DNA of 64,000 nucleotides from an uncultured Cytophagales bacterium. GTDB lineage: Bacteria > Bacteroidota > Bacteroidia > Cytophagales > Thermonemataceae. Position numbers and translations under genes: made by a program. Below, piece by piece: positions 12,794-63,124 of the stretch. Each line of letters opens with the position of its first letter. Position 1 is the first letter of the stretch. Location of the stretch: NCBI GenBank assembly GCA_938002655.1, contig CALLAC010000002.1:20823-84822 (forward strand), read 5' to 3'. The notes under the pieces are model-generated. The model worked only from the letters and a program-made list of their open reading frames with translations, did not search any database and was not told the origin of the DNA.

Positions 12794-12800
12794 TAGGTAC

Positions 12801-13295: not shown

Positions 13296-13404
13296 TTTCT
13301 CAAATACTTACTTTTGGGCAAAATTTTCAGGCCTTTTGTCAAACAAAATAGACAAATTGTCTTAAATTTTTCTTAAATTGCCATAGTAAACTGACATTTC
13401 GTCT

Positions 13405-15714: not shown

Positions 15715-15800
15715 AAAAGTGTATTCAGTAAAATTTATTAAATCTGCCAAAAAGCATACCTTATGCAAGGAGCATCTTTTGCAATAAGAATTACCAGTCA

Positions 15801-16064
15801 ATTAAATCTCCACTCAACTACATTGGTGGAAAATGCAAACTTTTAGACCAAATTTTACCCCTATTTCCTAAAAAAAATAAACACTTTCATCGATTTATTT
15901 GCAGGTGGGTGTATGTAGGTTTGAATGTGAAAGCAGATAAAGTTATCTGCAATGACAATCTGAAATTTTTAGTTGAAATGTACCAAGAATTTCAGAAAAA
16001 TAGCCTTTCAGAAATTTTACAAAACATTGACTTACATCTTGGGCATTTCTTCATAGTCAAATGA
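15801..16064 (+). pseudogene. Remnant of a D12-class (Dam-like) N6-adenine DNA methyltransferase
   Basis: IKSPLNYIGGKCKLLDQILPLFPKK, then in the +1 frame INTFIDLFAGGC, then back in frame VGLNVKADKVICND...; no start codon; stops at 16064. Confidence 0.8.
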
Positions 16065-16176
16065 AATAGAGTAATAGGCCTGCAAAATAAAAAAGCTGTA
16101 CCAAATTAGCAATAAAACTTACTTGACTTTTGTGCATGAAAATACAAATCCCTCAAAAAAAGTTATTTTTGGGCTT

Positions 16177-17373
16177 TCAAAATAAGCTTTCATACACATA
16201 TCCCACAATATCCTCTGCCACTTCTTTTTTACTTTTGAGCGAGAAATCGGTTTTATTGCCGTTTTTATCTAAAATACTGATTTTGTTGGTGTCGTAGGCA
16301 AAACCTGCCCCTTCGTCTTTGAGTGAATTTAACACTACAATATCAAAATTTTTCTTTTTCAGTTTTTGCAGTGCGTTTTCGATTTCATTTTGAGTTTCCA
16401 GGGCAAAACCTACAAAAAATTGATTCTTCTTTTTCTTTTGCCCCAAAGAAAAAGCTATATCTACATTTTTGATAAGTTCCAAAGTAAGTGTTTCGGAGTT
16501 TTTTTTGATTTTTTCAGTAGCTACTTCTTTGGGACGATAGTCAGCTACTGCCGCTGAAAAAATACAAATATCCATCTGTTCTACAAGAGTTTGAGCCACT
16601 TCAAACATCTCTTGTGCAGAGCTAACCTTATAAAAGCTAACTTTTTCGGGTTGAGCAATAGCAGTATTAGCGGCAATCAGATGCACCTCTGCTCCTTTTT
16701 GGGCAAAGCATTCTGCCAAAGCAAATCCCATCTTTCCCGTAGAATGGTTGCTGATAAAACGCACTGGGTCTATGGCTTCACGGGTAGCTCCTGCGGTTAT
16801 CATTACCTTTTTACCTGCAAAAATTTGTTTTTCTTGAAAAAAATTTTCTAAAAAAGCCACAATATGTTCAGGTTCAGCCATTCTTCCTTCGCCTATCAAG
16901 CCACTTGCCAATTCGCCGTATTCAGAGGGTATAATATAATTGCCATAGCTTTCGAGCTTACGCAAGTTTTCTTCGGTAGCGGGGTGCCGATACATATCCA
17001 AATCCATTGCAGGAGCAAAAAATACAGGACAGCGAGCAGAAAAATACGTAGCTGTAAGCAAATTATCGCAAATACCATTGGCACACTTGGCAAGCGTATG
17101 GGCACTAGCAGGAGCCACTACAATTGCATCAGCCCATAAACCCAATTCTACGTGATTGTGCCATATACCTGTTTTATCTTTTACAAAATCAACAAAAACT
17201 GGATTTTTGGAAAGCGTAGCAAGTGTAAGCGGTGTTATAAATTCGGTAGCCCTCTGGCTCATCAGTACTTTTACTTCTACCCCTTTCTTGACAAGCAGAC
17301 GCACCAAAAATGCAGACTTGTAAGCGGCAATACTTGCCGTTACGGCTACAATAATTTTCTTATTCTGCAACAT
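16177..17373 (-). CDS. coaBC: Bifunctional phosphopantothenoylcysteine decarboxylase / phosphopantothenate-cysteine ligase
   Basis: [60 protein letters not shown] and VGFALET motifs. Confidence 0.96.
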
Positions 17374-17905
17374 CTACGAAGTTTTTCTCTGCAACGATTT
17401 GAGCGGCTCTTTGCTTTTTCAGTCTTTTGTGTAAAAAAGATAATACTAAGTTTTCAAGTAAAACTTCAATAGGTTTCAAGAGTATCACAATGAAGAGCTT
17501 AAAACCAATACTTACCCACTGATTATCACCAAATTTAGCTTCTATGAATGGCTCTATCAAAATTTCTTCTACCAAAAAAAGTAATAAAGCTAAAAACAAA
17601 ACAATCGTGGTAGCCGTACGACCTGCACGGGCTTGGGTGAGTTCGTCAATGGTCTGTTGGAGTTGTTGGTTTTTGCTATCCAGTTCTCGGTTTTTTTGGT
17701 CTAAAGCCGCATTGGCTTTGTCTAATTTTTTCTGAATTTTGTCGCTTACTTTGGTAATAAGCCTCATTTGCCCGATAGACTCCTCAAAATTGAAAAGCAA
17801 ACGCTTGTATTCCTCTTTCAAATCATGCTCGTGCAAATCTAACTTTTCGGCAATTTGCTTGGCTCTTTGCAACTCATTGACTTCCTTGATGTAAAATTTT
17901 TCCAT
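17360..17905 (-). CDS. Hypothetical protein with coiled coil and two C-terminal transmembrane helices
   Basis: 181-aa ORF with a heptad-like Q/K/L region and two hydrophobic segments; its stop overlaps the coaBC start. Confidence 0.7.
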   Translation of the reverse strand: MEKFYIKEVNELQRAKQIAEKLDLHEHDLKEEYKRLLFNFEESIGQMRLITKVSDKIQKKLDKANAALDQKNRELDSKNQQLQQTIDELTQARAGRTATTIVLFLALLLFLVEEILIEPFIEAKFGDNQWVSIGFKLFIVILLKPIEVLLENLVLSFLHKRLKKQRAAQIVAEKNFVDVAE

Positions 17906-17996
17906 TCAGAAATTTTTTTTTGCAAAGATAGTTTTTATTTGCTTTTTTCGTAATTTCAAAACGAAAAACTTTTGATAACCCTGAAATTTACTTGCT

Positions 17997-18530
17997 ATGA
18001 ACCCTTGGCACGATGTTCCTGTGGGCGATAATCCGCCCGAAATAGTCAATGCTATCATTGAAATCCCCAAAGGTAGCAAAGGAAAGTTTGAAATACATAA
18101 ACCTACAGGCTTGCTGATGCTAGATAGAGTGTTGTTTTCGGCTGTTCATTATCCCGCAAATTATGGCTTTATACCACAAACCTATTGCGACGATAAAGAC
18201 CCACTCGATATTTTAGTGATTATGTCGATTGATTTACCTCATTTATGTATGGTTGATGCCAAAGTAATCGGTGTAATGCGAATGATAGACCAAGGCGAAG
18301 CTGACGATAAAATCATTGCCGTAGCCCGCTACGATATGAGTGTCAATTATATCAACGACATCAGCCAACTCCCTCCCCACACTACCGTTGAAATACGACG
18401 CTTTTTTGAAGATTACAAAAAACTTGAAAACAAAAACGTGATTGTAGAAGAATTTTTAGGTAAAGCCGAAGCTATGCAAATTGTGCAAGAAAGCATAGAG
18501 CTCTATCAAAAAACTTTTTGCAAACAATGA
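17997..18530 (+). CDS. ppa: Inorganic pyrophosphatase, family I
   Basis: [41 protein letters not shown] and FFEDYKKLE motifs. Confidence 0.95.
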
Positions 18531-19125
18531 AACCTATTACAAGCCTTTCGGATTTAGATTTGAATAGTATTTACACTTGCGCCGATTATCTGAATTGGCA
18601 TTTAAAGCAGGCTGTGGAGCTTATCAAAGGAAAAATTTTCCCTGTGCCTCCTGCTCCAAGTATGAAACCCCAAAGAATATCTTGGCAAATCTCTTATTTT
18701 ATTGCTGATTTCTTGAAAAATAAGGAATGTAGAGCCTTTTCCACACCTTTTCATGTTTGCCTGCTCGATAAACAAAAATCTAAAGAAGCCTATACCGTTG
18801 TTCGGCCTGATATTTCCATGATTTGCAATAAAAACAAATTATTAGATGAAAGAGACCGTTTGGGCTCACCCGAATTGTAGAGATTCTCTCTTTGGGAAGT
18901 TCTAAAAAAGAAATGAAAATCAAGTATCAACTTTACGGAGAGGCAGGTGTAAAAGAACATTGGGTGGTTTATCCTTACGAGAAAAGCGTGCTTCAATTCG
19001 TTTTAGACGTAAAAACCGATAAATTTTATCTTAAAGCCACTTTCGCCAAAGATGAAATGCTTGTTTTGCACATTTTCCCCGATTTATAAATTGATCTGGC
19101 AAAAGTTTTTGAAGATTGTATTTAG
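18527..19125 (+). pseudogene. Uma2-family (PD-(D/E)xK) endonuclease pseudogene
   Basis: Two ORFs (18518-18880 and 18892-19089) join into one Uma2-like protein (ELIKGKI...PAP...VVRPDI...GSPE / IVEILS...KYQLYGEAGVKEHWVVYP). Frameshift near 18870-18878; in-frame TAA at 19087 before IDLAKVFED. Confidence 0.8.
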
Positions 19126-19188
19126 TTGATGCTTTCAAAGAAAAAATCTATTGTTACCGTATTTTAAACCCTGTAAAAGCATAGTCTC

Positions 19189-19851
19189 ATGGCAGAAGTA
19201 AAAATAGCAGAGTCTTGGAAAGTACACTTGCAAGAAGAGTTTAATAAGCCTTATTTTGAAGATTTAATTACTTTCGTAAAATACGAATACAAACAAAATA
19301 AAGTATACCCGCCAGGCAGTTTAATCTTTAATGCCTTTGAGCAATGTTCGTTTGAAGATTGCAGAGTAGTTATTTTAGGGCAAGACCCTTACCACGGCGA
19401 AGGACAAGCTCATGGGCTTGCCTTTTCGGTACCTGATGGCGTAAAAATGCCTCCTTCACTTATCAATATCTTTAAAGAAATTCAAGCAGATGTAGGAAAG
19501 CCTTTTCCTAAAAGCGGTAATTTAGAACGATGGGCAAAACAAGGAGTATTATTGCTGAATGCAACGCTTACAGTACGAGCAGGGCAGGCTGGTTCGCATC
19601 AAAACAAAGGCTGGGAAAGGTTTACCGATGCTGTTATTCAAATAATTTCAGACCGAAAAGAGCACGTTGTTTTTTTACTTTGGGGGGCTTATGCTCAAAA
19701 AAAGGGAAAAATTATCGATAGAGCCAAGCATCTTGTTTTAGAAGCTCCTCATCCTTCGCCTTTGGCAGGTGGAGGCTTCGCTGGCAATCGGCATTTTAGC
19801 CAAACCAACAAATACCTTATCCAACACGGCTTTCAGCCTATCGATTGGTAG
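19189..19851 (+). CDS. ung: Uracil-DNA glycosylase
   Basis: GQDPYH, PPSLINI, WAKQGVLLLNATLTV, LWG and HPSPL motifs. Confidence 0.97.
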   Translation: MAEVKIAESWKVHLQEEFNKPYFEDLITFVKYEYKQNKVYPPGSLIFNAFEQCSFEDCRVVILGQDPYHGEGQAHGLAFSVPDGVKMPPSLINIFKEIQADVGKPFPKSGNLERWAKQGVLLLNATLTVRAGQAGSHQNKGWERFTDAVIQIISDRKEHVVFLLWGAYAQKKGKIIDRAKHLVLEAPHPSPLAGGGFAGNRHFSQTNKYLIQHGFQPIDW

Positions 19852-19865
19852 TTTCTGAACAATGT

Positions 19866-20744
19866 TTATTTTTTCAATAATTTTCTAATTTTTTCTGTAA
19901 GTTCTTGGCTTGCCTTCACGAGCGGCAAACGCACTTGCGAGCTACAAATACCCATTTCTGCAAGCAACTGCTTGATACCTGTGGGGTTCCCCTCAACGTA
20001 CATCAAATCGTTTAGAGGTAAAATTTCAAACAATTTTTCAGTAGCTTTGGCAAAATCGCCTGCCAGAGCCAGATGTGTCATTTCATTGAAAGCCTTCAAA
20101 GCATTAGCCAATACCGAAATTACGCCTACTGCTCCAAAACTTACCATTGGCACAGTGAGCATATCATCGCCTGAAATAAGTAAAAAATCTTCGGGCTTCC
20201 GACGAGCAATTTCCATACATTGCAACAAATTGCCCGAAGCCTCTTTGATACCTATAATATTGGGGTGCTGGGCTAATTTGAGCGTAGTTTCAGCCGTAAG
20301 GTTGGAAGCCGTACGCCCAGGAACATTATACAAAATAATGGGAACAGGCAAAGCCTCAGCCAATTTTTCATAATGAGCTACTATACCCGCCTGCGAAGGC
20401 TTATTGTAGTAAGGACTTGCCGAAAGAACCGCCGTAATACCCGAAAAGTCTGTTTCTTGAATAATTTGCAATAAATTTTCTGTATTGTTTCCGCCAATGC
20501 CATATACAATAGGCAAATTGTTGGGATTGTTTTTTTTAGCAAATTCTAACAAAACTTTTTTTTCTTTTGCGGTAGTAGTAGGCGACTCACCCGTAGTGCC
20601 CTGAATTACCCAATAATCCACACCCATGGCAGTGGTATGAGCCAAGAGCTTTTCAAAACTGGCAAGGTCAAGCTGATAATCTTCTGTAAAAGGTGTAACA
20701 AGGGCAACACCCACCCCTTTAAGTTGGTTTTGTGGTAGTTTCAT
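19866..20744 (-). CDS. dapA: 4-hydroxy-tetrahydrodipicolinate synthase
   Basis: ALVTPF, GTTGESPT, PYYNKPSQ, LYNVPGRT, GIKEASG and SGDD motifs. Confidence 0.96.
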   Translation of the reverse strand: MKLPQNQLKGVGVALVTPFTEDYQLDLASFEKLLAHTTAMGVDYWVIQGTTGESPTTTAKEKKVLLEFAKKNNPNNLPIVYGIGGNNTENLLQIIQETDFSGITAVLSASPYYNKPSQAGIVAHYEKLAEALPVPIILYNVPGRTASNLTAETTLKLAQHPNIIGIKEASGNLLQCMEIARRKPEDFLLISGDDMLTVPMVSFGAVGVISVLANALKAFNEMTHLALAGDFAKATEKLFEILPLNDLMYVEGNPTGIKQLLAEMGICSSQVRLPLVKASQELTEKIRKLLKK

Positions 20745-21357
20745 TTTCTAATTGTTTTGCCAAATGGTGCAAATCTAATAGCATTTGCTCAATAATCAAA
20801 TCGTAACGTAATTTTTTAGGCGAGGAAAGCAGTACCATCGTAATACGATTTTGGAAAATAAGAAGCGTACTGAACAAAAACCAAATTTGAGCATATTTTT
20901 GGGCAAAAGGCACAAAAAACTTTTGAGCAATTTCTTTCACTATTTCAGCAGGCGAGCCGCTGATAAAATACTCCTTATCAATCCAAGCAATTTCAGTACG
21001 AACAAGCTGACTTTCATCAGGCTTTTCTTTGGCTCTTAGGTGGTTTTTAGGGGTAATTTGAAAATGTATTTTTGAAGAGTTATTTATTTCAAGGCTAATG
21101 ACCAAATAGTTGTATCGTTCTTGAATGGTACGTTCAACCAGAATATGCCTGCCCGCCCATACTCCTTCTATGCGAGGTAAAGCAATGTTTCCCTTTTTTT
21201 GTTTAAGATTGGCTGACAAAACAAATTTTTCAGCTACTTTCTGAAAGTAATCCACAATTTTTTTACTTTCCTGAATTGTTTGAAGCCGAAAATAAAAAAA
21301 GAAAAATGTTATGCCTGCCAAAACAACAAAAAGCAAAATAGCAAGAAATAAATGCAT
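20719..21357 (-). CDS. Hypothetical protein with an N-terminal membrane anchor
   Basis: 212-aa ORF with a hydrophobic N-terminal helix; lies between the ABC gene and dapA and overlaps the dapA start. Confidence 0.65.
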   Translation of the reverse strand: MHLFLAILLFVVLAGITFFFFYFRLQTIQESKKIVDYFQKVAEKFVLSANLKQKKGNIALPRIEGVWAGRHILVERTIQERYNYLVISLEINNSSKIHFQITPKNHLRAKEKPDESQLVRTEIAWIDKEYFISGSPAEIVKEIAQKFFVPFAQKYAQIWFLFSTLLIFQNRITMVLLSSPKKLRYDLIIEQMLLDLHHLAKQLENETTTKPT

Positions 21358-21387
21358 AGCCCTATGTGTTTTATGAAAAAAAATACA

Positions 21388-24300
21388 TTACTTCTTTTTC
21401 TTTCTTTGCACTTTGCTAATTAGAATGCTTATTTGCTCGAGTAGTTTTCGGAATACGTTGAAGTACAAGGTAATAAACAAGATAGCACTCATCAAGCAAA
21501 TGATGAAAATATTAAAATACACTGTTTCCCAAAATATTCCTGCAAAGTATTTTTGTGGTGCAAAAAAATGCGTTCTAAAATCGAGAGCGTGGTTAGGTTC
21601 GGGATTTTGGAAAATAGGATAAATTTTTTGTATAAGCCTTCTGCCATCGGTAATAATTCTTTCTGGCGTTTCCACTGCCTTGACAAGTTTTTCAATCGAT
21701 TCGTTGTGGTAATAGTTTTTCATCGCAAGAAATTGCTTGCGTTCTGTTTCATTCTTGGTAAGCGAAGCTATCAGCTTATCTTTCTGCTCACTATATTCGT
21801 TGTAAGAAAGAATGTAAAACTTTTTGATTTTCTGCAAGTGCTCTTTAAGGGCGTGATATTTTTCTTTCAGAGCAAGCAAATCCAACTTTTCAAGATTTTC
21901 CCAAACGATACCTGTTAGTTTGTTTTGTTTTTGCAATTCATTTTTTAGCACCACCAAATTTTCTTTGGCTTCATCTTTCAAAGAGTCAGTGGATTGAAAA
22001 TTGAAAGCATTATCCAGTTTAGTTTCCAATTCGGGCACATAAAGTACCTTGTGATATTCGGCTTGGGCAATTTTTTGGTCGTAGAAATAAAAATTTTGCT
22101 CAAAACGATTGTTTTTGAATTGTCCTACTACAAGTGCTTCAAAAGCCCAACGCGAAGCCATAAATTCTGCTAATAGAGGCACTTTACGATTTGAGCCTAA
22201 TACGGGATTGATCTCATTGAAACGCACGACAATTCCTCCTAAAAGCAATTGTGGAATAAGAAGCAAAGGAATAAGTATGTAAATCGTAACTACCGAATTG
22301 AACGTAGCTGAAATGTTTAAGCCGAGCATATTAGCAAAACAAGCCGTACTGAATAAAACCAACCAGTACAGAGTGTTCATTGCTTCGATACCCAAAATCC
22401 AGTTGCCAATCAGTACAAAACTCAACATCTGAATTGCCGAAAACGAAAACATCAGTATTATTTTGGAAATAAGATAACTCATTCGGCTCAAATGCAAAAA
22501 ACGCTCTCTTTTGCGAATTTTAGCATCTCTGATAATTTCTTCGGCACTTACCGAAAGCCCTACAAAAAGTGCTACAATCACTGCCATAAAAATATAAGCA
22601 GGCAGATTATTGTTTTTCGCAAAAATATAAGTGCCATCAGAAACTTGATAAAATCGGACAATAAAGGCAAGAATCAGAGCTAAAAGAGGTGCTTCTAGCA
22701 AATTGATAGCCATATACTGCGTATTACTTAGCTTGGCAAGTACGTCTCTTGTCAGATACACCTGCATTTGCTTAAAAAATGAAGCTATTTTGAAATGTAT
22801 AGCCGGTTTTTCGGTATATCTGACAACTTGTGGCGGAGGAATATATTTTTCATAAAATTCGTGCCACTTTCGAGGGGTAATTTTTCGTTTATCGGTAAGC
22901 GAGCCATATTCATTCACTATCTTGGCTTCAATGATATTAAAAATTTGTTCAGGATTAACATTTCCGCACTCAGTACACATATTTTTATCTTTGTCTACAA
23001 AACCTGCAATACTCTTAAAATGCGTCACAGCCTCCAACGGATTGCCGTAGTAAATCGGATAGCCTCCTACATCAAGAATAAGAAGTTTATCAAACATTTT
23101 GAAAATATCGGAAGAAGGCTGATGAATAACGATAAAAATAAGTTTTCCACGCAGAGCCAATTCTTTGAAAAGCACCATAATGTTTTCCGAATCGCGTGAA
23201 GAAAGGCCTGAGGTTGGTTCATCAACAAATAGAATGTAAGGTTCTCGCAAAAGTTCTAATGCGATATTAACCCGCTTTCTTTGCCCCCCGCTGATAATTT
23301 TTTGTAGTGGATTGCCCACTTTCAGGTCTTGTATTTCCAAAATTCCCAAATTTTTGAGTGTTTTTCGTACGAGTTCATCAAGTTCTTGTTCAGAAGCATC
23401 GCCAATGCTTAGTTTGGCCGCATAATACAAATTCTGATACACGGTAAGTTCTTCAATGAGCAAATCGTCTTGGGGAACATAGCCAATCAGACCTGCTGTT
23501 GCTTTCTTATCTTCCTGAATATCAATAGAGTTGATAAGTACTTTCCCTTTTGTAGGCTTGAGCGTGCCATTGAGTACATTGAGCAAGGTAGATTTTCCCG
23601 AACCACTTGCCCCCATCAGCCCGATGAGTTGCCCTGCCTGTTCGGCAAGGTTAATCTCTCGCAATCCTATATGCCCATTTGGAAATTTATACCAAATATT
23701 TTCAGCTTCAAAAGAAATTTTTACTTGGCTTACTTCGTTCAAAAAAAGCCCTACCACATCGCTATAATATACAGGCTTGATGTTTTCAGCTCTAATACTA
23801 CTACCTATGGGAAAAGGATAAACGTGATGGTCTTTGATAGGCAAGGAGTTGAGATAAATATCACTTTTGCCTATGTATTTCATAAGATATATTTCGGTAC
23901 TGGGCATGCGTAAAATACCAATAGCCCCCTCTAAATTTTTCCGATAAATGTGTTTATATTGGCTTTCTGTACTTTCTTTGCTATCAATCCATACAATATG
24001 ATTATGAAAATTGCTTTGGCAAAAATCTTCTAGAATGAAATGACGCAAAAGCTCGTACTCCAATGGCTCTAAAAAAAAGTATTGGCTAATTTTTTGAGAA
24101 AATTTCTGCTCTCTTTCACTTGCCACTCCATCAGCAATGCTCAATTCTAAAAGATAAGCTAAAATGATAATTTTTTGATTTTTGGTAAGTTCACTATTGA
24201 GTTGCTCACAAATTTCACGAGGATTAAGCTTTTTTTCGGTATAATTATTAAAAATAGCAATGTATTTGGCCACAACTTCTTCGTCAAAATTTTCTTCCAA

Positions 24301-24399
24301 AAATTTTCGAATAATTTGTTTCTCTTCGTCAGCAACGCCATCTATTTGGGCTGAAGCCGCAAGTAACTGAATAATTGCTCGTAAAACCTTCTCGCTCAT
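21388..24399 (-). CDS. ABCG/White-type half transporter with N-terminal TerB-like domain (paralog 1)
   Basis: TerB-like ADG..SERE region; Walker A GASGSGKS; signature ISGGQRKR; Walker B ILFVDEP; H-loop IHQP; C-terminal ABC-2-type membrane domain. Confidence 0.85.
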   Translation of the reverse strand: MSEKVLRAIIQLLAASAQIDGVADEEKQIIRKFLEENFDEEVVAKYIAIFNNYTEKKLNPREICEQLNSELTKNQKIIILAYLLELSIADGVASEREQKFSQKISQYFFLEPLEYELLRHFILEDFCQSNFHNHIVWIDSKESTESQYKHIYRKNLEGAIGILRMPSTEIYLMKYIGKSDIYLNSLPIKDHHVYPFPIGSSIRAENIKPVYYSDVVGLFLNEVSQVKISFEAENIWYKFPNGHIGLREINLAEQAGQLIGLMGASGSGKSTLLNVLNGTLKPTKGKVLINSIDIQEDKKATAGLIGYVPQDDLLIEELTVYQNLYYAAKLSIGDASEQELDELVRKTLKNLGILEIQDLKVGNPLQKIISGGQRKRVNIALELLREPYILFVDEPTSGLSSRDSENIMVLFKELALRGKLIFIVIHQPSSDIFKMFDKLLILDVGGYPIYYGNPLEAVTHFKSIAGFVDKDKNMCTECGNVNPEQIFNIIEAKIVNEYGSLTDKRKITPRKWHEFYEKYIPPPQVVRYTEKPAIHFKIASFFKQMQVYLTRDVLAKLSNTQYMAINLLEAPLLALILAFIVRFYQVSDGTYIFAKNNNLPAYIFMAVIVALFVGLSVSAEEIIRDAKIRKRERFLHLSRMSYLISKIILMFSFSAIQMLSFVLIGNWILGIEAMNTLYWLVLFSTACFANMLGLNISATFNSVVTIYILIPLLLIPQLLLGGIVVRFNEINPVLGSNRKVPLLAEFMASRWAFEALVVGQFKNNRFEQNFYFYDQKIAQAEYHKVLYVPELETKLDNAFNFQSTDSLKDEAKENLVVLKNELQKQNKLTGIVWENLEKLDLLALKEKYHALKEHLQKIKKFYILSYNEYSEQKDKLIASLTKNETERKQFLAMKNYYHNESIEKLVKAVETPERIITDGRRLIQKIYPIFQNPEPNHALDFRTHFFAPQKYFAGIFWETVYFNIFIICLMSAILFITLYFNVFRKLLEQISILISKVQRKKKK

Positions 24400-24566
24400 T
24401 TTTTCAGATTTTAGTGAATAAGAAAAAACTTAAATAAAAGTGATATCAAGATTTAAACTTTTAGATTTTTTTACTGCTTTTTGAAATGCCCGTGAAGACA
24501 TACTTTTTTGAGCCCAAAAAGAAAAAGACATTGTCGATAAAAAAGTGCAACATAAGAGCCTATTTT

Positions 24567-25511
24567 CTAGATAAGCATCCATTCTTTTACCTTCGGATTG
24601 GGCAAATCTTTTTCCAGAGGTATTTGCATAATACTGTACACATTTTGTTTTATTACATTTGCAATATGAAGCAAAGGCAAATCATTGGCATCGGTACCGA
24701 AAGGTTGTTCAATTTCTTCAGAAATAATTTCTACACCTGCTAAAGCATAGCTTATCAGAAATACAGCAGGAATTGTATAATAATGAAAAGTATCTACCAT
24801 TCCCAAAGGCAAAAGCATCGAGTAAAGCAAAATGAAACTCTTGATAAATGAAACATGCGAGAAAGGAATAGGCGAGTTTTTAATTCTTTCACAAGCTCCC
24901 ATTATGTTTATCATTTGTTCAATTTGTTCTTTGATGTTTATTTTATCGACATCATTAAATTTACCTTGCTTAAAGAGTTCCTCCATTTTTACGAAAATAT
25001 TCGTAGCAATTAGATGAGGAATGTGTTTGGCTTTTTTGAGTTTTTCAATATAATTTTTATCTCCACAGTCGTCAAAATAATGAAAATTCATTTTATCGCG
25101 TAAGTGCCCTTCGAGAGCATAAGCAAAATTAGTGATTTGAGCGGCCAGATAGTGTCTATTTTCGTAATCATCGTTAAGTAAGGCGTAAAAGTTAGATGCC
25201 ATAGTACGACTCTCGTTGATTAAAGCTCCCCAAAGTTTTCTACCTTCCCACCATCTTTCATAAGAAGAGTTGGTACGAAAAACCAAAGTCAGACCCATAA
25301 TTACCCCTATAAGTGAAAGGAAAGTAACGTTCAGCTCTATGGGATATTTATTTTTATCATAAAAAACGTGCAAACGCAAATATACTATGGCAAGGCTGTA
25401 AAGCATTATGATAAGTTGAATTTTGAGCAGTTCTCGGATATTATAGGCATGCCTCAGGCCTATCAAACCTTTAAGAACCAACATCCATTTCCCTGAATCA
25501 TACAAAATCAT
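24567..25511 (-). CDS. Bestrophin family (YneE/UPF0187-like) ion channel
   Basis: LVFRTNSSYERWWEGRKLWG, GACERIKNSPIP and EEIEQPFGTDANDLP motifs. Confidence 0.92.
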   Translation of the reverse strand: MILYDSGKWMLVLKGLIGLRHAYNIRELLKIQLIIMLYSLAIVYLRLHVFYDKNKYPIELNVTFLSLIGVIMGLTLVFRTNSSYERWWEGRKLWGALINESRTMASNFYALLNDDYENRHYLAAQITNFAYALEGHLRDKMNFHYFDDCGDKNYIEKLKKAKHIPHLIATNIFVKMEELFKQGKFNDVDKINIKEQIEQMINIMGACERIKNSPIPFSHVSFIKSFILLYSMLLPLGMVDTFHYYTIPAVFLISYALAGVEIISEEIEQPFGTDANDLPLLHIANVIKQNVYSIMQIPLEKDLPNPKVKEWMLI

Positions 25512-25543
25512 AGTTTTTAGTAGTTTTGATTTCTGATAAAAGT

Positions 25544-26557
25544 TTAATACACATTCACTTCGGTTTGCAAAACAATTCCGAACTGTTCTTCTACACTTTT
25601 CTTAATTTTTTGAGCAAGTTGCCAAATTTCTTTGCCTTGTGCATTTCCTGTATTGATAAGCACTAAAGCCTGCCTATGGTGCACACCCGCATTTCCTTCG
25701 CGATAGCCTTTCCAACCTGCTTGCTCAATGAGCCAAGCGGCAGGCACTTTATAAGTATTTTCGTTGAGTGGGTAGGCAGGTAAGTTCGGATAATTTTGTT
25801 TCAAATACTCATAATGTTTTTTAGAAATGTATGGATTTTTGAAAAAACTACCTGCATTACCTATTTCAGCAGGGTTGGGAAGTTTTTCGATACGAATTTG
25901 CCGAACTGCCTCACTGATACTTTGAACAGAAGGCTCAATATGACGCTCTTTGAGAAACTTCTCAACATCGGCATACGAAAAATTTAATGTAGGTTTTTTA
26001 GAAAGTTTCAGCACTACTGTAAGTATAATAAAGCGATTTTTTAGTTCATTTTTGAAGATACTCTCGCGATAACCAAATTTACAATCTTTTTTATTAAAAC
26101 GATAGATTGTCCCTGAAGCGACATCAAAAGCCTCTAAATATTCAAAAACTTCTTGCAGTTCAACTCCATAAGCCCCGATATTTTGCATAGGTGCCGCCCC
26201 TACGGTACCAGGTATGAGTGTCAGGTTTTCAATGCCTCCCCAATTACGAGCCACACAATACTCTACAAGTGTATTCCAGTTTTCACCCGCTTGCACTTTC
26301 AGCCAAACATTCTCATCATCTTCCCTGATAATCTCTTTTCCTAAAAGACTGATTTTTAGAACTAATCCTTCAAAATCTTGTGTAAAAAGCACATTACTTC
26401 CTCCTCCTAAAATCAGCAAAGGCAGATTGTTTGTTTTTTGCCAATGTACAGCATCACAAATTTGGTGAACATGCCAACATTCTACAAAATAACGAGCCTT
26501 TACCTCGATACCAAAAGTATTGTAAGATTTGAGCGAAACGTTTTCCAAAATATTCAT
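25544..26557 (-). CDS. murB: UDP-N-acetylenolpyruvoylglucosamine reductase
   Basis: YNTFGI, GGGSNVLF, LIPGTVGAAPMQNIGAYG, FGYRESIFK, GNAGSFFKNP and HRQALVL motifs. Confidence 0.96.
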   Translation of the reverse strand: MNILENVSLKSYNTFGIEVKARYFVECWHVHQICDAVHWQKTNNLPLLILGGGSNVLFTQDFEGLVLKISLLGKEIIREDDENVWLKVQAGENWNTLVEYCVARNWGGIENLTLIPGTVGAAPMQNIGAYGVELQEVFEYLEAFDVASGTIYRFNKKDCKFGYRESIFKNELKNRFIILTVVLKLSKKPTLNFSYADVEKFLKERHIEPSVQSISEAVRQIRIEKLPNPAEIGNAGSFFKNPYISKKHYEYLKQNYPNLPAYPLNENTYKVPAAWLIEQAGWKGYREGNAGVHHRQALVLINTGNAQGKEIWQLAQKIKKSVEEQFGIVLQTEVNVY

Positions 26558-26559
26558 AA

Positions 26560-27768
26560 TCAGAGCAAATAACCAAGTATCAAACCTGTAATTACAATAA
26601 AGGGCGGCGGAATTTTAGTAAAGTGTAAAATTACAAAAGTTCCAATGGCAACGCCAATATCCAAAAAAATTTCATTAGTAGAATTTTGTTCAAAAATAGC
26701 CTGCCCCATAAGCACTACGGCAACCAGCACAAGTCCTACACTTACGGCGTGTATTCCTTCTAGTGCGGCACGAACAGGGCGATATTTCTTGAGCTCGTCC
26801 CAAAACTGCATTACAAAAAAAATAAGCAAAGTTCCAGGCATAAAAATGCCAAAACTTGCCAAAAAAGCCCCTAACGTTTGTCCCCATGTTCCAAACTCAC
26901 GCATTGCCATTGCCCCAATGAAAGCAGAAAAAGCAAAGGTAGGACCTGGCAAAATTTGATTGAAATTATAGCCCAAATCAAACTCTTCGCGAGTAATCAG
27001 CTTCTTGATATACACAAATTCCGTAAGCATTAGTGGCACAAGCACGTGCCCTCCTCCAAAAATAATAGAGCCAGTTCGGTAAAAATTTTCAGCCAAACGA
27101 AAAGGCAATCCGAAAGTATAACGTCTGGTAAATTCGCTAAAAAAAGCCAAAACAGCAAAAATCAGAACAAAATAAGTGAGATTTCGCCAACGAATTTTGA
27201 TTTTTTTGTCAGCTACTTTGGGATATTTTTCAAAATTACGCATAGTTACCAAACCACCGAAAACTATCAGCAAAGGCAAAAACCATTGTGAGTGATAAAA
27301 ATAGGCGACTATGGCTGAAAAAACTACTAAAAACGCAGATACTTTGCTTTGCACTACTCTGGGCGTTATTTGCCAAGCCGCCGAAAAAATAAAACCTACT
27401 GCAATGGCTTGTGTAAAACGTGCAAAAGAGAAATCTACTTGGTTTTGCTCTAAATACGTGATAAAAATAGCGGCAAGGGTCATTATGAGCAAAGAAGGAA
27501 AAATCCAAATCACAAGGGTCAGATATGCCAAACCTGCTCCGCCCAAACGATAAGCTATGCCTGTAATGGTTTGTGTAGAAGTAGGTCCAGGCAAAATTTG
27601 ACAAAGGGCATAAATTTCAAGCAAAGCACTTTCGGAGAGATAGGCTCTTTTTTCGCAAAAAATACGGATAAAATGTGCCAAATGAGCCTGCGGACCGCCA
27701 AATGATGTCCAAGACATTACGAAAATCTCACGCAAAAAAATCAGATAACGTATTTTGCGAAATTCCAT
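26560..27768 (-). CDS. chrA: Chromate ion transporter (CHR family, long form)
   Basis: Tandem CHR domains: SFGGPQAH...ALCQILPGP and FGGGHVL...NQILPGPTF. Confidence 0.88.
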   Translation of the reverse strand: MEFRKIRYLIFLREIFVMSWTSFGGPQAHLAHFIRIFCEKRAYLSESALLEIYALCQILPGPTSTQTITGIAYRLGGAGLAYLTLVIWIFPSLLIMTLAAIFITYLEQNQVDFSFARFTQAIAVGFIFSAAWQITPRVVQSKVSAFLVVFSAIVAYFYHSQWFLPLLIVFGGLVTMRNFEKYPKVADKKIKIRWRNLTYFVLIFAVLAFFSEFTRRYTFGLPFRLAENFYRTGSIIFGGGHVLVPLMLTEFVYIKKLITREEFDLGYNFNQILPGPTFAFSAFIGAMAMREFGTWGQTLGAFLASFGIFMPGTLLIFFVMQFWDELKKYRPVRAALEGIHAVSVGLVLVAVVLMGQAIFEQNSTNEIFLDIGVAIGTFVILHFTKIPPPFIVITGLILGYLL

Positions 27769-27776
27769 TTACAGTA

Positions 27777-28508
27777 TCAGTGAGTATTGGTGAGTTTTTT
27801 GAACTCTTCGCGAGTAAGCATTTTATCCATACGCGTATCTAAATGCTGATAGCGTTCTTTGAACATGTTTTCCATTTCTTTGAGGCGATGCGAAGTAGTT
27901 TTAGCTATCAGATACGCATAACCCATACTTACAAAGGCTATAAGAATGGAAAGAATAGTGATTATCCAAAGGCCTGTATTGCTACTGGCTTCGGGTGGGG
28001 GTAGCTTCTGATTTTCAGCAGGAATAATAGTTTCTTGAATTTCCCCTGTATTTGTATCGCTTTTGCTATCATTCCTTTGCACTCCTTCATCGGTAGTTGT
28101 AATACCCAGAGTTTTATCCAAAGAAGCCGAAAGCGAATCCAAACCTATTTTCCATTTCGCCTGAAAATCAGCAGATTTACTAATACGAGGAGCTAAACTA
28201 CGAAGTTCTTTCCAGACATCTTTTTTAAACTGCTTTATTTTTTCTTCATCACTGCTCAAATGAGCGTAATTTTTATTTTTGTAAGCAGAGATGATATTTT
28301 TAGAAGCACGAGAAGAATTGGGTGTTGTTTTTTCCAGGGTTAGCAAAGTTGAGCAATCGATTTTATTGGCTATTTCTGCTTTATTTTGTTGAATATGATT
28401 AAATTTGATTGCCTGACAGAGAATTTCTAACTTAGCTTTTTCAAAGGGAATTTGAGCAAAAAGAGGAGCATTTAGCAAAGAAAGTGCTAAAATTACTGTT
28501 CGAAGCAT
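27777..28508 (-). CDS. Hypothetical protein with signal peptide and C-terminal membrane anchor
   Basis: N-terminal signal-like segment, polar linker, TM helix GLWIITILSILIAFVSMGYAYLI, short basic tail. Confidence 0.65.
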   Translation of the reverse strand: MLRTVILALSLLNAPLFAQIPFEKAKLEILCQAIKFNHIQQNKAEIANKIDCSTLLTLEKTTPNSSRASKNIISAYKNKNYAHLSSDEEKIKQFKKDVWKELRSLAPRISKSADFQAKWKIGLDSLSASLDKTLGITTTDEGVQRNDSKSDTNTGEIQETIIPAENQKLPPPEASSNTGLWIITILSILIAFVSMGYAYLIAKTTSHRLKEMENMFKERYQHLDTRMDKMLTREEFKKLTNTH

Positions 28509-28595
28509 ATATTTTTCTGATTTTTAAGCTGAAAACATCGCAAAGCTAAAATTTTATTCACCAAAATCAAATGATTTTATGAAGTTATTTTTCAT

Positions 28596-30260
28596 TTAAT
28601 CCTCGCTACGAGGTGGCTCGTAGGCTTCTCTTTTGAAAAAAGTAAATCCCCCTTTTTTGTAAAGCATAGTAAGATGTGGATAGGTTTGCTGAAACCTCTC
28701 AAGCTCATCGGTTTTTACTACAAAATAAGCATCTTTATCAATTTTACCATTCAAAAGCCACTCGGTATTTTCCTGATAAGTTTCTTTTTGATAAAAATTG
28801 GGATTTTGGTAGTGTGGATATTGAAAGTAAAAATAATGAGCATAACTTTTGAACCAAACCGTAGTTACATAGCTATTCGGATTTTCTTGGCGAAGCATTT
28901 TGTAAAACTCAATAGCAGGGGCTTGTGAGTATTGCTCAATCAGCGGTACAACTACCGCCAAATAAACATTTATTACCAGAGCAGAAGCCAAAAAAAGGGT
29001 TACGGAGGCTTTTGCCACTTGCTTTCTTATTTTCCGGGCTGTCCAAAATACTGCTATACCATACAAAACACCTATCAAGAATTCCCAGCCTTTCCATTTT
29101 ACGGGGGTTTTCAGGCAATCTAAGGCAAATGGGTCATCGATATAAGCATAAAAATTTTCTTTGTAATAAGCAAAAAGTGGTACAGCCGCAAGAATAAGAG
29201 CGAAAATCCCACCTAATATTCCTAAAAACCACTCAAAACGCTTGGGAATTGAATTCTGAGAAATAAATTGTGTGATAGCTTGGGCGGCAAAAAATGAAAG
29301 CGGTAAATAAGCCATTGATGAATAATGCACGATTTTTGTTTCTACAATTGAGAATAAAATCATTACTACCCAAAACAAAAAAAACATTTTCTTATGAAAA
29401 ACAGGGGAGGCTTGTTTCAAATTTTTACGAAAGCCCCACAAAGCAAATACCGACATCGGAAAACACCCCAAAAAAACTACTACGAAATGATAGAAGAAGG
29501 GTTGTTCGTGTCCTGCATCGGGTGTAGAAAATAAACGAATTTGATACTCAATAAACATTTTGAAAAACCACCAGCCTCCCTGCCATAGCTCTACTGCAAA
29601 CCAAGCCAAAGAAACCAAAGCTGTTGAAAAAGCATACAAGACTACCGCTTGCCAAGTAGCTATTCGGCGAAAACGCTCACTTGCCCAAAATGCTACAAAA
29701 CTTAACAGTATGAGCAAAAAGCCCACAGGACCTTTGGTAAGCACAGCCAAGCCTGTAAAAATACCTGCTAAAATGGCTTTACGATTGCTTGCAGTTTCAA
29801 TCGTTTCTGCAAGATAATATATGCTTAAAAAAATAAAGTAGTTGAATACAGGGTCAATAATACCTGATTTGAAGTACATAAAAGGCAAAAAACTCCCCAA
29901 ATACGCCATTGCCCACCAAAAACCTATTTGCAAAGAGTATTTGCGTGTGCCTATATGTAAAAATGTGAGCAGTGTAATTACTCCAAAAATAGCATTAGGC
30001 AGGCGTGCCGCAAAAGCATTGATACCAAACAAACTCATTGAAAGACTTTGCAACCAGAAAAAAAGTGGCGGTTTTTCCCAAAAAGGGCGATAATTGATTT
30101 GTACTTGCCTGAAATTTCCTGTAACCAACATTTCACGAGCCGACTCGGCAAAATTCACCTCGTCCCAATCAAAAAGATGAACACTTCCTAAAAAAGTTGT
30201 AAAGAAAAGCAATCCTGCTATTAGAAAAAAAATTTGATGTAGACGATAGCTAATAGGCAT
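28596..30260 (-). CDS. ArnT/PMT-like GT-C glycosyltransferase (lipid-linked donor)
   Basis: DWDEVNFAESAREM, EKPPLFFWL, ARLP, LTKGPVG and HEQPFFY motifs in a polytopic membrane protein; probable start Met 30260. Confidence 0.88.
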   Translation of the reverse strand: MPISYRLHQIFFLIAGLLFFTTFLGSVHLFDWDEVNFAESAREMLVTGNFRQVQINYRPFWEKPPLFFWLQSLSMSLFGINAFAARLPNAIFGVITLLTFLHIGTRKYSLQIGFWWAMAYLGSFLPFMYFKSGIIDPVFNYFIFLSIYYLAETIETASNRKAILAGIFTGLAVLTKGPVGFLLILLSFVAFWASERFRRIATWQAVVLYAFSTALVSLAWFAVELWQGGWWFFKMFIEYQIRLFSTPDAGHEQPFFYHFVVVFLGCFPMSVFALWGFRKNLKQASPVFHKKMFFLFWVVMILFSIVETKIVHYSSMAYLPLSFFAAQAITQFISQNSIPKRFEWFLGILGGIFALILAAVPLFAYYKENFYAYIDDPFALDCLKTPVKWKGWEFLIGVLYGIAVFWTARKIRKQVAKASVTLFLASALVINVYLAVVVPLIEQYSQAPAIEFYKMLRQENPNSYVTTVWFKSYAHYFYFQYPHYQNPNFYQKETYQENTEWLLNGKIDKDAYFVVKTDELERFQQTYPHLTMLYKKGGFTFFKREAYEPPRSED

Positions 30261-30264
30261 AAAT

Positions 30265-60109: not shown

Positions 60110-63100
60110 TTAGCCAAAGGTAAATTTGAGTTTCCAAAAAAGCATTTCCAACCATTTTACAAAGCGTGCCAGCAAACGAAAATACAAGAAAAAGTAAGTG
60201 GCAATTATCATAAGCCACAAAACAGCCAAGTTGAAAGATAAAGTGCTTATCGTTTCATTTACAACTTTTTTATTAGGGGCAAAAAAATGGGCAGAAATAT
60301 CCTGTGCATCAATGTAAATGGCATTTGCGATGGGCTCTATATGTTTTTGCAAAACAACTAATTTTTGCTCGCTATCTAGCTGTTTTACCAAACGAGCTAG
60401 GGCTTCGTTATGATACAGGCGACGAAGATTGTGATGGGCAGGGTTTTCGCGTAAAAAATTATCCTTAGCTTTTGAGGCAACTTGTTGTTCTTGCTTGTAA
60501 TATTTTCGGATATTTTTGAAAATCTTTTCCATTTGTTTGTAAGTTCCTGCAATATTTTTCTCTTCAGTGAGAGCGTAAAGGGTAGGAATTTCCTTTCTAT
60601 CAATTTTTTCTAATTCTTTGGTCAGTTCGTTCCGAATGAGCCAGAAAGTCTGCCCCGACTGATACGGATTGCTTCGGGCTTTATCTAAAAGTTTTTGTAA
60701 TTCGGGCAAATAAAATACTTTTTTATATTCGGCGGTTGCTATGATTTTATCATAAGCATACAAGGGTTTTTGGTAGGCATTTTCCTTAAATTGTACTACC
60801 ATCAGAGCCTCAAAAGCCCAACGCGATGCTAAAAGTTCTGAAAACCAAGGAATATGGTCTTGGGCAGAAAACTTGAACTCAGGATTAACTTTATCAAAAC
60901 GAATTACAATGCCTCCTAAAACTAGTTGCGGAATGAGTAATAAAGGTATGAGAATATACACCGTAACCGCAGATTTGAAAGAGTCTGAAATCAGCAAGCC
61001 TAAGACATTGGCAAAAGCCGAACAAGAAAAAAGCACTATAAAATACTCCCAAGTCATTCCACGAATTTCTAAAATACTATTGCCTATCCATACCAAAGCC
61101 AAAATTTGTACAAAAGAAAGTGTAAAAAGTACTGCCGCTTTGGCAAGCAAATAGCTATTACGGCTCAGATGCAAAAAAGCTTCTCTTTTGAGAATTTTTC
61201 TATCGCTGATAATCTGCTCGGCACTCCCTACCAAACCCGAAAACAATGCCACAATAATTGCAATAAAAATATAAGCTGGGATATTTTCGTTTTCGCCAAA
61301 TGTGTAAGGCTTATTAGGCTCGTGATAACGATTTACGTAAGCTAAGCCAAAAGCCAAAAGCGGTGCTTGCAACAAATTGACAAGCAGGTATTGTGAATGA
61401 TTAATTTTGTTCTTTAAATCTCTTTTGAAAAAAATGAAAAATTGTCTAATTCGACTAGGCGATTGGATACGCTGGTTGGGGATTTCGCCTTGAATGAAGA
61501 CATCATTTCTGGCTTGGCTTTCTATTTCTTTCTGATAAGTTTCATACCATTGTTGGGGTGAAATTTTTCTTTTTTCTGTAAAACGTCCATATTCATTGAC
61601 AATTTTGGCAGAGATAATATCAAAAATTTGTCCTACATCAATATTTCCACACTCACTGCACTCGCCTTGGCTACGGCTTACTTGCCTTGCGTGCTTACGA
61701 AAATACGGCACAGCATCAATCGGACTACCATAATAAATCGGGTAGCCTCCTGTATCGATAATGAGTAATTTATCAAACATTTTGAAAATAGTTGATGAAG
61801 GCTGGTGAATTACTACTATTACAAGTTTGCCTTCTAGGGCAAGCTCTTTGAGCAAATCCATAATGTTTTCTGAATCGCGAGAAGAAAGCCCCGAAGTAGG
61901 TTCATCGACAAAAAGGATCGCAGGTTTGCGTAATAGTTCCAAGCCAATATTCAAACGTTTTCTTTGCCCGCCGCTGATGGTTCTTTCCAGAGGTGAGCCA
62001 ACTTGTAAATGAGCTACTTCTTGCAAGCCTAAACGTCTTAAAACCTCTTCTACACTTGCCTGTATTTGTGTTTCGTTTTGGTTGCCCAAACTCAATTTTG
62101 CTGCATAATAAAGGTTATCATATACACTCAGATGTTCTATGAGCAAATCATCTTGTGGCACATAGCCGATAATGCCTTCTAATTTTTCTTGATGTACATT
62201 ACGCCCATTGATAAGCACTTTGCCGCTATGCGGTTTCAAATTTCCGTTTAGTACTTCTAAAAGCGTAGATTTTCCTGCACCGCTCTCGCCCATGATACCT
62301 AAAAGTTTACCACCACTTTCAGCAAAGCTGATTTCTCGAATGCCATTTTTTTTATTTGCAAAAAGATATGTTACATGTTTTGCTTCTAGATAAATTTTCT
62401 GCTCTTGCTTGGTTTTTCGGAAAATGCTCACTATATCGCTGTAATAAATTGCCTCTATGCGTCCTCCTCTGATGACACTACCTGGCGAAAGGAAATAAAT
62501 ATACCCGCTTTTAAGCAAAAAGCCATTCAGATAGTAATCTTGCTCGCCAATGTATTTGAAAAGATAAGTTTCCAGATTTGGTACTCGCAAAACAAGCATA
62601 AATCCTTGCAGATGAGGCTGATGCAAATGATAGGCATAATGAATATTGGCAAAAGGTGTAATGTAGAGCGTATTTTCAAGGAAATGCTTTTCAATGTAAT
62701 CAATGGTGATAAAGTTGATAAAATTTTCTACTTCGCTTTGCTCGAAATTGAAAATAGCGGCAACAGTATGAATGAACTCCCATTCATTAGAGCTAATTTC
62801 GCCATCGGCGGCGATAAGTTCAACCATTTTGATAAGGGCAACGAGTTTTTGCTGTTGGGTAAGCTCCTGATTGATACGCGTGCATATCACGAGCATACGC
62901 GACGAAATACGCATGCTTGTAAGTTTTAAGCCACTATCATCAGTTTCTACGGTACGAAGTTTAGAAAATTCCTCAAAAATGAGCAAATATTTATGCACCT
63001 GTTCGGGGCTGAGATGCTCTTGCAAAAAATTTTCTACCAAATTTCTATAAGTGGGTTGTGTGCCTTCCAAAGAAGCCGTAATACCAAATAGTTGCATTAG

Positions 63101-63124
63101 GGCTTTGAGTATCTCCTCAGTCAT
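60110..63124 (-). CDS. ABCG/White-type half transporter with N-terminal TerB-like domain (paralog 2)
   Basis: ADGEISSNEWEF TerB-like region; GESGAGKS, ISGGQRKR, ILFVDEP and IHQP motifs; ABC-2-type membrane domain; same architecture as 21388-24399. Confidence 0.85.
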   Translation of the reverse strand: MTEEILKALMQLFGITASLEGTQPTYRNLVENFLQEHLSPEQVHKYLLIFEEFSKLRTVETDDSGLKLTSMRISSRMLVICTRINQELTQQQKLVALIKMVELIAADGEISSNEWEFIHTVAAIFNFEQSEVENFINFITIDYIEKHFLENTLYITPFANIHYAYHLHQPHLQGFMLVLRVPNLETYLFKYIGEQDYYLNGFLLKSGYIYFLSPGSVIRGGRIEAIYYSDIVSIFRKTKQEQKIYLEAKHVTYLFANKKNGIREISFAESGGKLLGIMGESGAGKSTLLEVLNGNLKPHSGKVLINGRNVHQEKLEGIIGYVPQDDLLIEHLSVYDNLYYAAKLSLGNQNETQIQASVEEVLRRLGLQEVAHLQVGSPLERTISGGQRKRLNIGLELLRKPAILFVDEPTSGLSSRDSENIMDLLKELALEGKLVIVVIHQPSSTIFKMFDKLLIIDTGGYPIYYGSPIDAVPYFRKHARQVSRSQGECSECGNIDVGQIFDIISAKIVNEYGRFTEKRKISPQQWYETYQKEIESQARNDVFIQGEIPNQRIQSPSRIRQFFIFFKRDLKNKINHSQYLLVNLLQAPLLAFGLAYVNRYHEPNKPYTFGENENIPAYIFIAIIVALFSGLVGSAEQIISDRKILKREAFLHLSRNSYLLAKAAVLFTLSFVQILALVWIGNSILEIRGMTWEYFIVLFSCSAFANVLGLLISDSFKSAVTVYILIPLLLIPQLVLGGIVIRFDKVNPEFKFSAQDHIPWFSELLASRWAFEALMVVQFKENAYQKPLYAYDKIIATAEYKKVFYLPELQKLLDKARSNPYQSGQTFWLIRNELTKELEKIDRKEIPTLYALTEEKNIAGTYKQMEKIFKNIRKYYKQEQQVASKAKDNFLRENPAHHNLRRLYHNEALARLVKQLDSEQKLVVLQKHIEPIANAIYIDAQDISAHFFAPNKKVVNETISTLSFNLAVLWLMIIATYFFLYFRLLARFVKWLEMLFWKLKFTFG

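Follow-up and report, generated by a model that had tools for sequence, protein, structure and literature searches.

A putative ABCG-type exporter with a TerB and FHA-fold head from an uncultured Cytophagales bacterium, and the conserved gene context of its family

Architecture of the exporter

The stretch of DNA analysed here, referred to below as the window, comprises 64,000 nt from an uncultured Cytophagales bacterium of the family Thermonemataceae (contig CALLAC010000002.1, positions 20,823 to 84,822). On its minus strand, at 21388..24399, lies the whole gene of a putative ABC exporter of 1003 aa, hereafter paralog A, which was delimited by the open reading frame (ORF) list, its translation and full-length homologues. 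Five parts are laid out in this single 1003-aa ORF, namely a TerB domain, a predicted FHA-fold domain, an ABCG-type core in which a nucleotide-binding domain (NBD) precedes a transmembrane domain (TMD), a CxxC motif and a helical insert. Orthologues that are 89%, 82% and 71% identical to paralog A match it in length and architecture, and no internal stops were found among hundreds of its relatives; therefore, the gene is real and under selection. The whole-protein AlphaFold2 model, built from a 48-sequence alignment, has a mean predicted local distance difference test score (pLDDT) of 80 and a predicted template modelling score (pTM) of 0.65, and places in order seven helices (residues 3-123, the TerB domain), a set of strands (135-211) with a helix (212-220), and the ATPase domain (229-465).

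The initial annotation, made from the letters alone, had read the protein as a eukaryote-like ABCG half-transporter with a TerB-like N-terminus, an FHA-like segment lacking the GR/SxxH residues, a CxxC motif and a long insertion ahead of the last transmembrane (TM) helix. All of these parts are upheld by the evidence given below, and their order agrees with both Pfam and the AlphaFold2 model. Every motif quoted for them (YVPQDD, SGGQRKR, DEPTSGL, IHQPS and CTECGN), together with the peptide IYLNSLPIKDHHVYPFPIGSSIR, which corresponds to residues 181-203, was located in the translation of 21388..24399. The annotation had also allowed that the family might already have an assigned function; neither the source names nor the literature assign one. 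The database names of the relatives are generic, the automatic label of the Joint Genome Institute (JGI) being 'ABC-type multidrug transport system', and the literature on TerB-ABC fusions, bacterial ABCG proteins and SiaC in Bacteroidetes yielded no paper describing this exporter family. A role in defence was considered and rejected, as PADLOC gave generic ATPase matches only.

The ABC ATPase domain (residues 229-465; 23005..23715, minus strand) was delimited by its motifs and by Pfam ABC_tran, which matches residues 246-397. Its motifs are intact, with Walker A GASGSGKS, Q-loop YVPQDD, signature SGGQ, Walker B ILFVDEP and H-loop IHQP. According to the Pfam order and the AlphaFold2 topology, this NBD comes first in the polypeptide and is followed by a six-helix ABC-2 membrane domain. 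The ABC-2/ABCG-type membrane domain (residues 541-762; 22114..22779, minus strand) is placed by Pfam PF01061, AlphaFold2 and Foldseek and comprises an elbow helix (541-558), TM1 to TM5 and a re-entrant helix (748-762); the Pfam match to ABC2_membrane (PF01061) covers residues 544-761, and the ABCG-linked ABC2_membrane_7 matches weakly at 426-525. When the whole model was compared by Foldseek, the top 50 matches were all eukaryotic ABCG structures (E down to 5e-24, TMt 0.65-0.79). The best NCBIfam model is TIGR00955 (White/pigment-precursor ABCG; E 1e-71), with a score of 242 bits that lies far under the curated cut-off of 736.35. The best sequence matches in the PDB are Cdr1/Pdr5, ABCG1, ABCG5/8 and ABCG2. 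By sequence and modelled fold, the core is thus ABCG-like.

Between TM5 and TM6, AlphaFold2 places an insert of about 200 residues (763-958; 21526..22113, minus strand) at the position of extracellular loop 3 (EL3). It is modelled as helices at 765-801, 805-829, 844-880 and 884-907 followed by two beta hairpins, the three long helices having 37, 25 and 37 residues. The insert is present in all 81 aligned members, with a length of 145-216 aa (median 199) and with conserved residues N764, Y862, Y897, N899, P928, P948 and K950; a sequence search of the PDB gave no match to it. The remainder of the gene (21388..21525, minus strand), assigned from AlphaFold2 and the translation, encodes TM6 (959-979) and a basic cytoplasmic C-terminal helix ending in KKKK before the stop codon. 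Lys and Arg abound in the C-terminus and in the cytoplasmic TM2-TM3 loop, as would be expected if both termini were inside the cell (N-in/C-in); the insert would then be located in the periplasm, where ABCG proteins have their extracellular loop 3.

Past the ATPase domain, the sequence C475-x-x-C478-GNV-N482PEQIF487 (22939..22977, minus strand) was defined by sequence conservation and by alignment with ABCG2. C475 and C478 are invariant in alignments of 120 and of 48 sequences. The CxxC motif occurs in 167 of 167 full-length relatives, 49 or 50 residues past the H-loop, and is directly followed by GNVNPEQIF in 116 of them. The loop carrying it (469-480) has low pLDDT in the AlphaFold2 model. 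The alignment with ABCG2 stops at ABCG2 residue 281, which corresponds to G466 of paralog A, suggesting that the CxxC loop is about eight residues longer than the loop of ABCG2 and stands directly ahead of the NPxxF counterpart. In this counterpart of the NPxDF motif, N482-P483-E-Q-I-F487, the Asn and Pro are kept in at least 90% of the sequences, the Phe is invariant, and the Asp position is occupied by Gln. In ABCG2, NPXDF (residues 289-293) and the nearby E285 and N288 are part of a second NBD:NBD interface, which is ABCG-specific and in contact throughout the cycle, and mutations at this interface abolish ATPase activity (PMC7037313).

The N-terminal TerB domain (residues 8-119; 24043..24378, minus strand) rests on Pfam PF05099 (E 4e-12) and the AlphaFold2 helices, of which there are seven. 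Its score of 46.8 bits passes the gathering threshold of 24.4, and the domain is matched in 47 of 48 family members. An acidic 'DG...E' motif occurs in it twice, as D20/E26 and D90/E97, each pair being kept in at least 90% of the sequences.

The second part of the head, an FHA-fold (pseudo-FHA) domain (residues 135-220; 23740..23997, minus strand), was recognised by AlphaFold2 and Foldseek. It is beta-rich, about 90 aa long, with 8-9 strands across residues 135-211. A separate AlphaFold2 model of residues 126-228 reached pLDDT 87.2 and pTM 0.79, and the best 50 Foldseek matches of this model in the PDB are all FHA domains (probability 0.90-1.00, E 2e-3 to 7e-2, TM-score 0.36-0.54), including those of CEP170, Mek1, Rad53 FHA1, TIFA, KIF1A, NIPP1, Chk2, PNKP, Ki67, the EssC N-terminal domains and DgcB. 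Profile methods did not recover this relationship: Pfam FHA (PF00498) has no match in paralog A at E<=1 and is not among the 25 most frequently matched Pfam families in the 48 members, an 82-sequence profile of the middle domain found no match in the PDB at E<=10, and a comparison by hhalign with 23 canonical FHA domains from Cytophagales returned a probability of 5%. The weak hhalign alignment nevertheless agrees with the Foldseek match, as the LNG of the family is aligned with the 'VNG' turn of FHA domains and its GSxIR with their 'GDxI' turn; E156..I159 stand opposite the canonical Ser-x-x-His, and a gap stands opposite the Asn of 'STNGT'. The residues that are conserved in the family are H150, G177, L183-N184-G185, G199-S200, R203, Y211-Y212 and D214. 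As modelled, the middle domain is an FHA fold, and because the binding residues are not conserved in it, it is one without the classical phosphothreonine pocket. A phmmer search with the middle domain against 1.84 billion representative proteins gave 237 matches; in all 150 of these that were listed, the domain occupies the same position, the proteins being either about 1000 aa long or shorter and then probably incomplete.

A PF00498 scan of the whole genome, which did not pick up the middle domain of paralog A, found four canonical FHA domains in other proteins (C32:2196-2663, C27:19104-19292 and C7:90429-90617, one of the locations holding a tandem pair). Classical phosphothreonine signalling therefore exists in this genome beside the Sia-type switches described below.

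Distribution of the family and its gene context

The first homologue search returned at least 8000 candidates. The closest full-length relatives of paralog A come from Raineya (82-89% identity), followed at about 50% by proteins of Thermonemataceae, Microscillaceae, Fulvivirga, Cyclobacteriaceae, Flexibacter and Chryseolinea. The exporter family was found in 9 of 301 sampled Bacteroidota genomes and in 101 of 151 Cytophagales genomes, where it is present in 63 of 86 genera. With at most five candidates scored per genome, one copy was counted in 56 of the positive Cytophagales genomes, two in 30 and three in 15. A scan of species genomes extended the range to Cytophagales, Vicingaceae, Salibacteraceae, Marinilabiliales/Bacteroidales and Chitinophagales-type metagenome-assembled genomes (MAGs), all records being labelled Bacteroidota except for one contig of an actinobacterial MAG. 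This 5.9-kb contig (CALPOI020000156.1) belongs to a MAG labelled Candidatus Planktophila lacus (Actinomycetota); its member groups inside a Bacteroidota clade (clade III, below), suggesting that the contig was probably mis-binned.

The 2.64-Mb source genome has three exporter copies, as do all six genomes of its genus. Paralog B, detected by homology search, lies in the window as well (60110..63124, minus strand); it has 1004 aa, is 44% identical to paralog A with equal architecture, and its CxxC motif reads CSECGN. Paralog C (1066 aa) is encoded on another contig (C1). Walker A, Q-loop, signature, Walker B, H-loop and CxxC are kept in all three. A FastTree phylogeny of 89 sequences resolved three well-supported clades, with paralogs A and B in clade I and paralog C in clade III; paralog B is on a long branch, and its exact position is thus uncertain. 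A 333-aa secreted protein (59045-60046) follows paralog B; it has no known-family match and belongs neither to the conserved lipoprotein family nor to the small-secreted-protein family described next.

Neighbouring genes were clustered across 82 exporter loci. In clade III, 27 of 28 loci share an upstream string of genes for CheR, CheB, a GAF protein, a HAMP/GAF/PAS-SpoIIE phosphatase, a DUF6272 protein and SiaC (PF09345), and a lipoprotein and a small secreted protein are encoded after the exporter; in the single exception, the sequence upstream is only 239 nt long. The DUF6272 protein corresponds to the SiaB-family kinase of NCBIfam (NF038262), with 179 bits against a cut-off of 85. Paralog C is embedded in such a context (G000:C1:232000-251900, positions 6300-18800), where a GAF protein, a 1223-aa HAMP-GAF-PAS-SpoIIE phosphatase, a SiaB-family kinase and SiaC precede the exporter and the pair of lipoprotein and small secreted protein genes is duplicated downstream; no CheR/CheB pair was found within the stretch examined. 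In Pseudomonas aeruginosa, SiaA and SiaB determine the phosphorylation state of SiaC, which binds SiaD directly and thereby activates it; DUF1987 proteins were proposed by the authors of the SiaC-SiaD structure to modulate adjacent proteins (PMC8457831). The SiaC proteins adjacent to exporters keep the motif L.YFNT.SSK, a counterpart of LLYLN-T68-SSIK, the peptide that is phosphorylated in SiaC of P. aeruginosa.

When SiaC was searched for in the same 151 Cytophagales genomes, 104 were positive. Both exporter and SiaC are present in 99 genomes, the exporter alone in 2, SiaC alone in 5 and neither in 45 (Fisher's test p = 3e-30, a statistic that ignores phylogeny). The relationship is asymmetric, as the exporter almost never occurs without SiaC. 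Co-absence was also seen within families, in two of six genomes of family f64 and in one genome of family f2. One genome with a single SiaC (G344) has its Sia module at G344:C1:2301000-2317000 (positions 3460-8722), where genes for a YfiR/HmsC-like protein, a TPR protein, a HAMP-SpoIIE protein, a SiaB-type protein, SiaC and a 169-aa protein are found and neither a GGDEF gene nor any other evident output gene adjoins; its one exporter, of the clade I type, is 93 kb away from this module. The source genome itself has an unusually large partner-switch repertoire, with seven SiaC-family and five DUF6272/SiaB-type genes (on contigs C1, C5, C17 and C29).

The lipoprotein is the second conserved partner. 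It is about 300 aa long with a clear lipobox, and its gene is adjacent to and co-directional with the exporter gene in 56 of the 82 loci, in all three clades. Neither Pfam nor NCBIfam nor PDB profiles gave a match to it. Its invariant residues are the lipobox Cys, G102, D107, Y110, D156, G188, E192, Q216 and R297 (L028 numbering). Four copies of the family are encoded in the source genome, those away from paralog C being on contigs C7 and C31.

Possible function and alternative explanations

The reading that we favour, with slightly more confidence than doubt, is that the protein is an ATP-driven ABCG-type half-transporter, likely working as an inner-membrane homodimer, which exports a hydrophobic or amphipathic envelope molecule and whose regulated head responds to a SiaC-type regulator. 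The TerB domain and the pocketless FHA-fold domain, cytoplasmic and ahead of the ATPase, would form a regulatory docking module. The likeliest regulator would be a SiaC-type phosphoprotein, its phosphorylation being set by a SiaA-like PP2C phosphatase and a SiaB-type kinase; the exporter is probably switched by a partner protein under such phosphorylation control, much as the mycobacterial exporter Rv1747 is controlled by the phosphoprotein Rv2623 (see below). On the other side of the membrane, the periplasmic stalk formed by the TM5-TM6 loop probably hands the cargo to the conserved lipoprotein or is controlled by it. Our guess of a lipid-like cargo draws on the cargoes of ABCG relatives, the periplasmic stalk and the lipoprotein. 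Since NPxxF forms a permanent second ATPase-ATPase contact in ABCG transporters, and the CxxC loop stands directly ahead of it, the two loops of a dimer could meet there and build a four-cysteine (Cys4) metal or redox clamp. What the analysis shows is the domain architecture, the folds, the sequence conservation, the clade III operon and the co-occurrence across genomes; from these we infer export itself, the class of cargo, that SiaC binds the head, what the CxxC motif does and that paralog A is controlled in trans.

Several points weigh against this reading. Neither a Sia gene nor a lipoprotein gene lies beside paralog A, no conserved synteny was found around it even among genomes of the genus or family, and Sia genes adjoin none of the clade I loci; any control of paralog A by SiaC would thus have to be exerted in trans. 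The co-occurrence of exporter and SiaC is uncorrected for phylogeny, and several whole families are without both genes. The Foldseek E-values behind the FHA fold are marginal, none being as low as 1e-3, and the Gly-Arg, Ser-x-x-His and NG(T) residues that bind phosphothreonine are conserved nowhere across the 82 sequences. Lacking these canonical residues, the FHA-fold domain is unlikely to support classical phospho-dependent recognition, and the recognition of a partner by the head may therefore not depend on phosphate.

The initial annotation had proposed that the TerB-like domain and the CxxC motif sense metal, lipid or redox state. In such a mechanism, the acidic motifs of TerB would bind metal or a CxxC thiol switch would gate transport, with no partner protein involved. 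The two acidic pairs, each kept in at least 90% of the sequences, would suit metal binding, a connection of TerB proteins with membranes and with stress responses has been described, and a universal CxxC in a flexible loop beside a functionally sensitive NBD interface would be well placed for a switch. However, the conserved neighbours include no metal-handling gene, no Zur-type operator is found near the promoter of paralog A although others occur elsewhere in the window, two cysteines per protomer would make a metal site dependent on the dimer, and TerB itself has no defined function. The gene context gives no support to sensing by TerB or CxxC and points instead to the Ser/Thr partner switch (SiaA/SiaB/SiaC) and the periplasmic lipoprotein. 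Sensing by the CxxC motif is possible; direct sensing as the whole explanation appears unlikely.

We consider it quite improbable that the protein is a mechanotransmitter, in which ATP hydrolysis would move the periplasmic stalk onto the lipoprotein or another partner, as in FtsEX, LolCDE and MacB-type systems. The large and universally conserved periplasmic domain, with a lipoprotein as the conserved adjacent partner, would suit such a machine, but the fold of the membrane domain, with its re-entrant helices, is that of ABCG and not of FtsX/MacB, and the characterised proteins with the ABCG fold are all known to carry substrates across the membrane or out of it. An obligate heterodimer of paralog A with paralog B or C, after the manner of ABCG5/ABCG8, has equally little to recommend it. 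Three paralogs per genome, two of them in the window and all kept in the six genomes of the genus, might suggest such pairing; against this, 56 of the 101 positive genomes show one copy (again with at most five candidates scored per genome), every catalytic motif is kept in all three paralogs with no degenerate site as in ABCG5/8, and the paralogs are non-adjacent and belong to separate clades of old origin that differ in gene context. A role in the general efflux of multiple drugs or xenobiotics, as implied by the automatic JGI names and by the presence of ABCG2 and Pdr5/Cdr1 among the best matches, is likewise hardly to be expected, because those names derive from generic domain matches only and a specific physiological cargo is suggested by the partners, which are a dedicated signalling operon, a lipoprotein and a small secreted protein.

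The SiaC-regulated exporter that we favour also has a stronger form, which we regard as doubtful. In this form, the whole family including paralog A would be the missing output of SiaABC in Bacteroidota, a pump gated by SiaC, with a Cys4 clamp at the second NBD interface and transfer of a lipid-like cargo from the stalk to the lipoprotein. The form of the SiaC paralog that docks on the head might then be either the unphosphorylated or the phosphorylated one, and the family would represent, again only tentatively, a previously undescribed signal-gated machine for export across the envelope.

Relation to known systems and surroundings of paralog A

ABCG transporters are of medical and agricultural importance, as they export sterols, drugs and hormones, and they are usually regarded as a eukaryotic family. 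With the eukaryotic half-transporters (ABCG1, ABCG2, ABCG5/G8 and the plant proteins ABCG25/16) the present exporter has in common the NBD-first order, the fold, the elbow and re-entrant helices and, after the NBD, an NPxxF motif as the putative counterpart of NPxDF. In contrast to them, the Bacteroidota exporter adds the TerB/FHA-fold head, the CxxC loop and the helical EL3 insert of about 200 aa, and the present family is bacterial and restricted to Bacteroidota.

The closest functional analogue is Rv1747 of Mycobacterium tuberculosis (FHA-FHA-NBD-TMD), in which an FHA-type head likewise stands N-terminal to an NBD-TMD exporter. Rv1747 is regulated by Ser/Thr phosphorylation (PMC5549992, PMC3138270); binding of the phosphoprotein Rv2623 to its FHA I domain restrains the exporter, whose proposed cargo is the glycolipid phosphatidylinositol mannoside (PIM) (PMC5549992). 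However, the two FHA domains of Rv1747 are canonical and bind phosphothreonine, and its cognate kinase is the Hanks kinase PknF, whereas paralog A has one pocketless FHA fold plus TerB, and the kinase near members of the present family, where one is found, is of the SiaB type and not of the Hanks type. The combination of a canonical FHA domain with a cognate Hanks-type kinase gene, which characterises an Rv1747-type system, is thus not seen for paralog A; in a Pfam scan of the ten ORFs around it (17360 to 30693), no kinase domain was found.

A second comparison is with SiaABCD of P. aeruginosa. Equivalents of its PP2C phosphatase, SiaB kinase and SiaC are encoded directly upstream of paralog C and of 27 of the 28 clade III genes; this set of adjacent genes is found beside paralog C and not at 21388-24399. 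In Pseudomonas the output of the Sia system is the diguanylate cyclase SiaD, whereas the clade III loci are without a GGDEF gene and the exporter adjoins instead. EssC/YukA, the ATPase of type VII secretion, also carries an N-terminal FHA fold on a membrane ATPase (Foldseek matches 1wv3 and 5fwh). It differs from the present exporter in that its ATPase is of the FtsK/SpoIIIE family and serves another secretion system. The FHA domains of EssC are likewise not known to carry phosphothreonine-binding residues.

An abundant bacterial lineage with the ABCG fold, the head, the CxxC motif and the stalk might offer a tractable model for control through the second NBD interface and loop 3. The family may also be the output of SiaABC-type switches, which have no adjoining SiaD-type cyclase in this phylum, and it points to a possible envelope-export route in environmental Bacteroidota (Cytophagales, Vicingaceae and Marinilabiliales). 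The gain from paralog A taken alone is modest, as it is one of three paralogs and the one with the least informative gene context.

Around paralog A itself, the orthologues from Raineya, Thermonemataceae and Flexibacter have different neighbours, that of Flexibacter retaining the lipoprotein gene upstream. In the window, a gene for a bestrophin-type channel, murB and a gene of the chromate-transporter family lie upstream of paralog A, and a 212-aa membrane ORF followed by dapA lies downstream. The 212-aa ORF (20719..21357, minus strand) has no known-family match and is outside the conserved lipoprotein and small-secreted-protein families. It encodes one N-terminal TM helix, starts 30 nt downstream of the exporter gene and overlaps with its end the start of dapA by 26 nt; it may be co-transcribed with paralog A.

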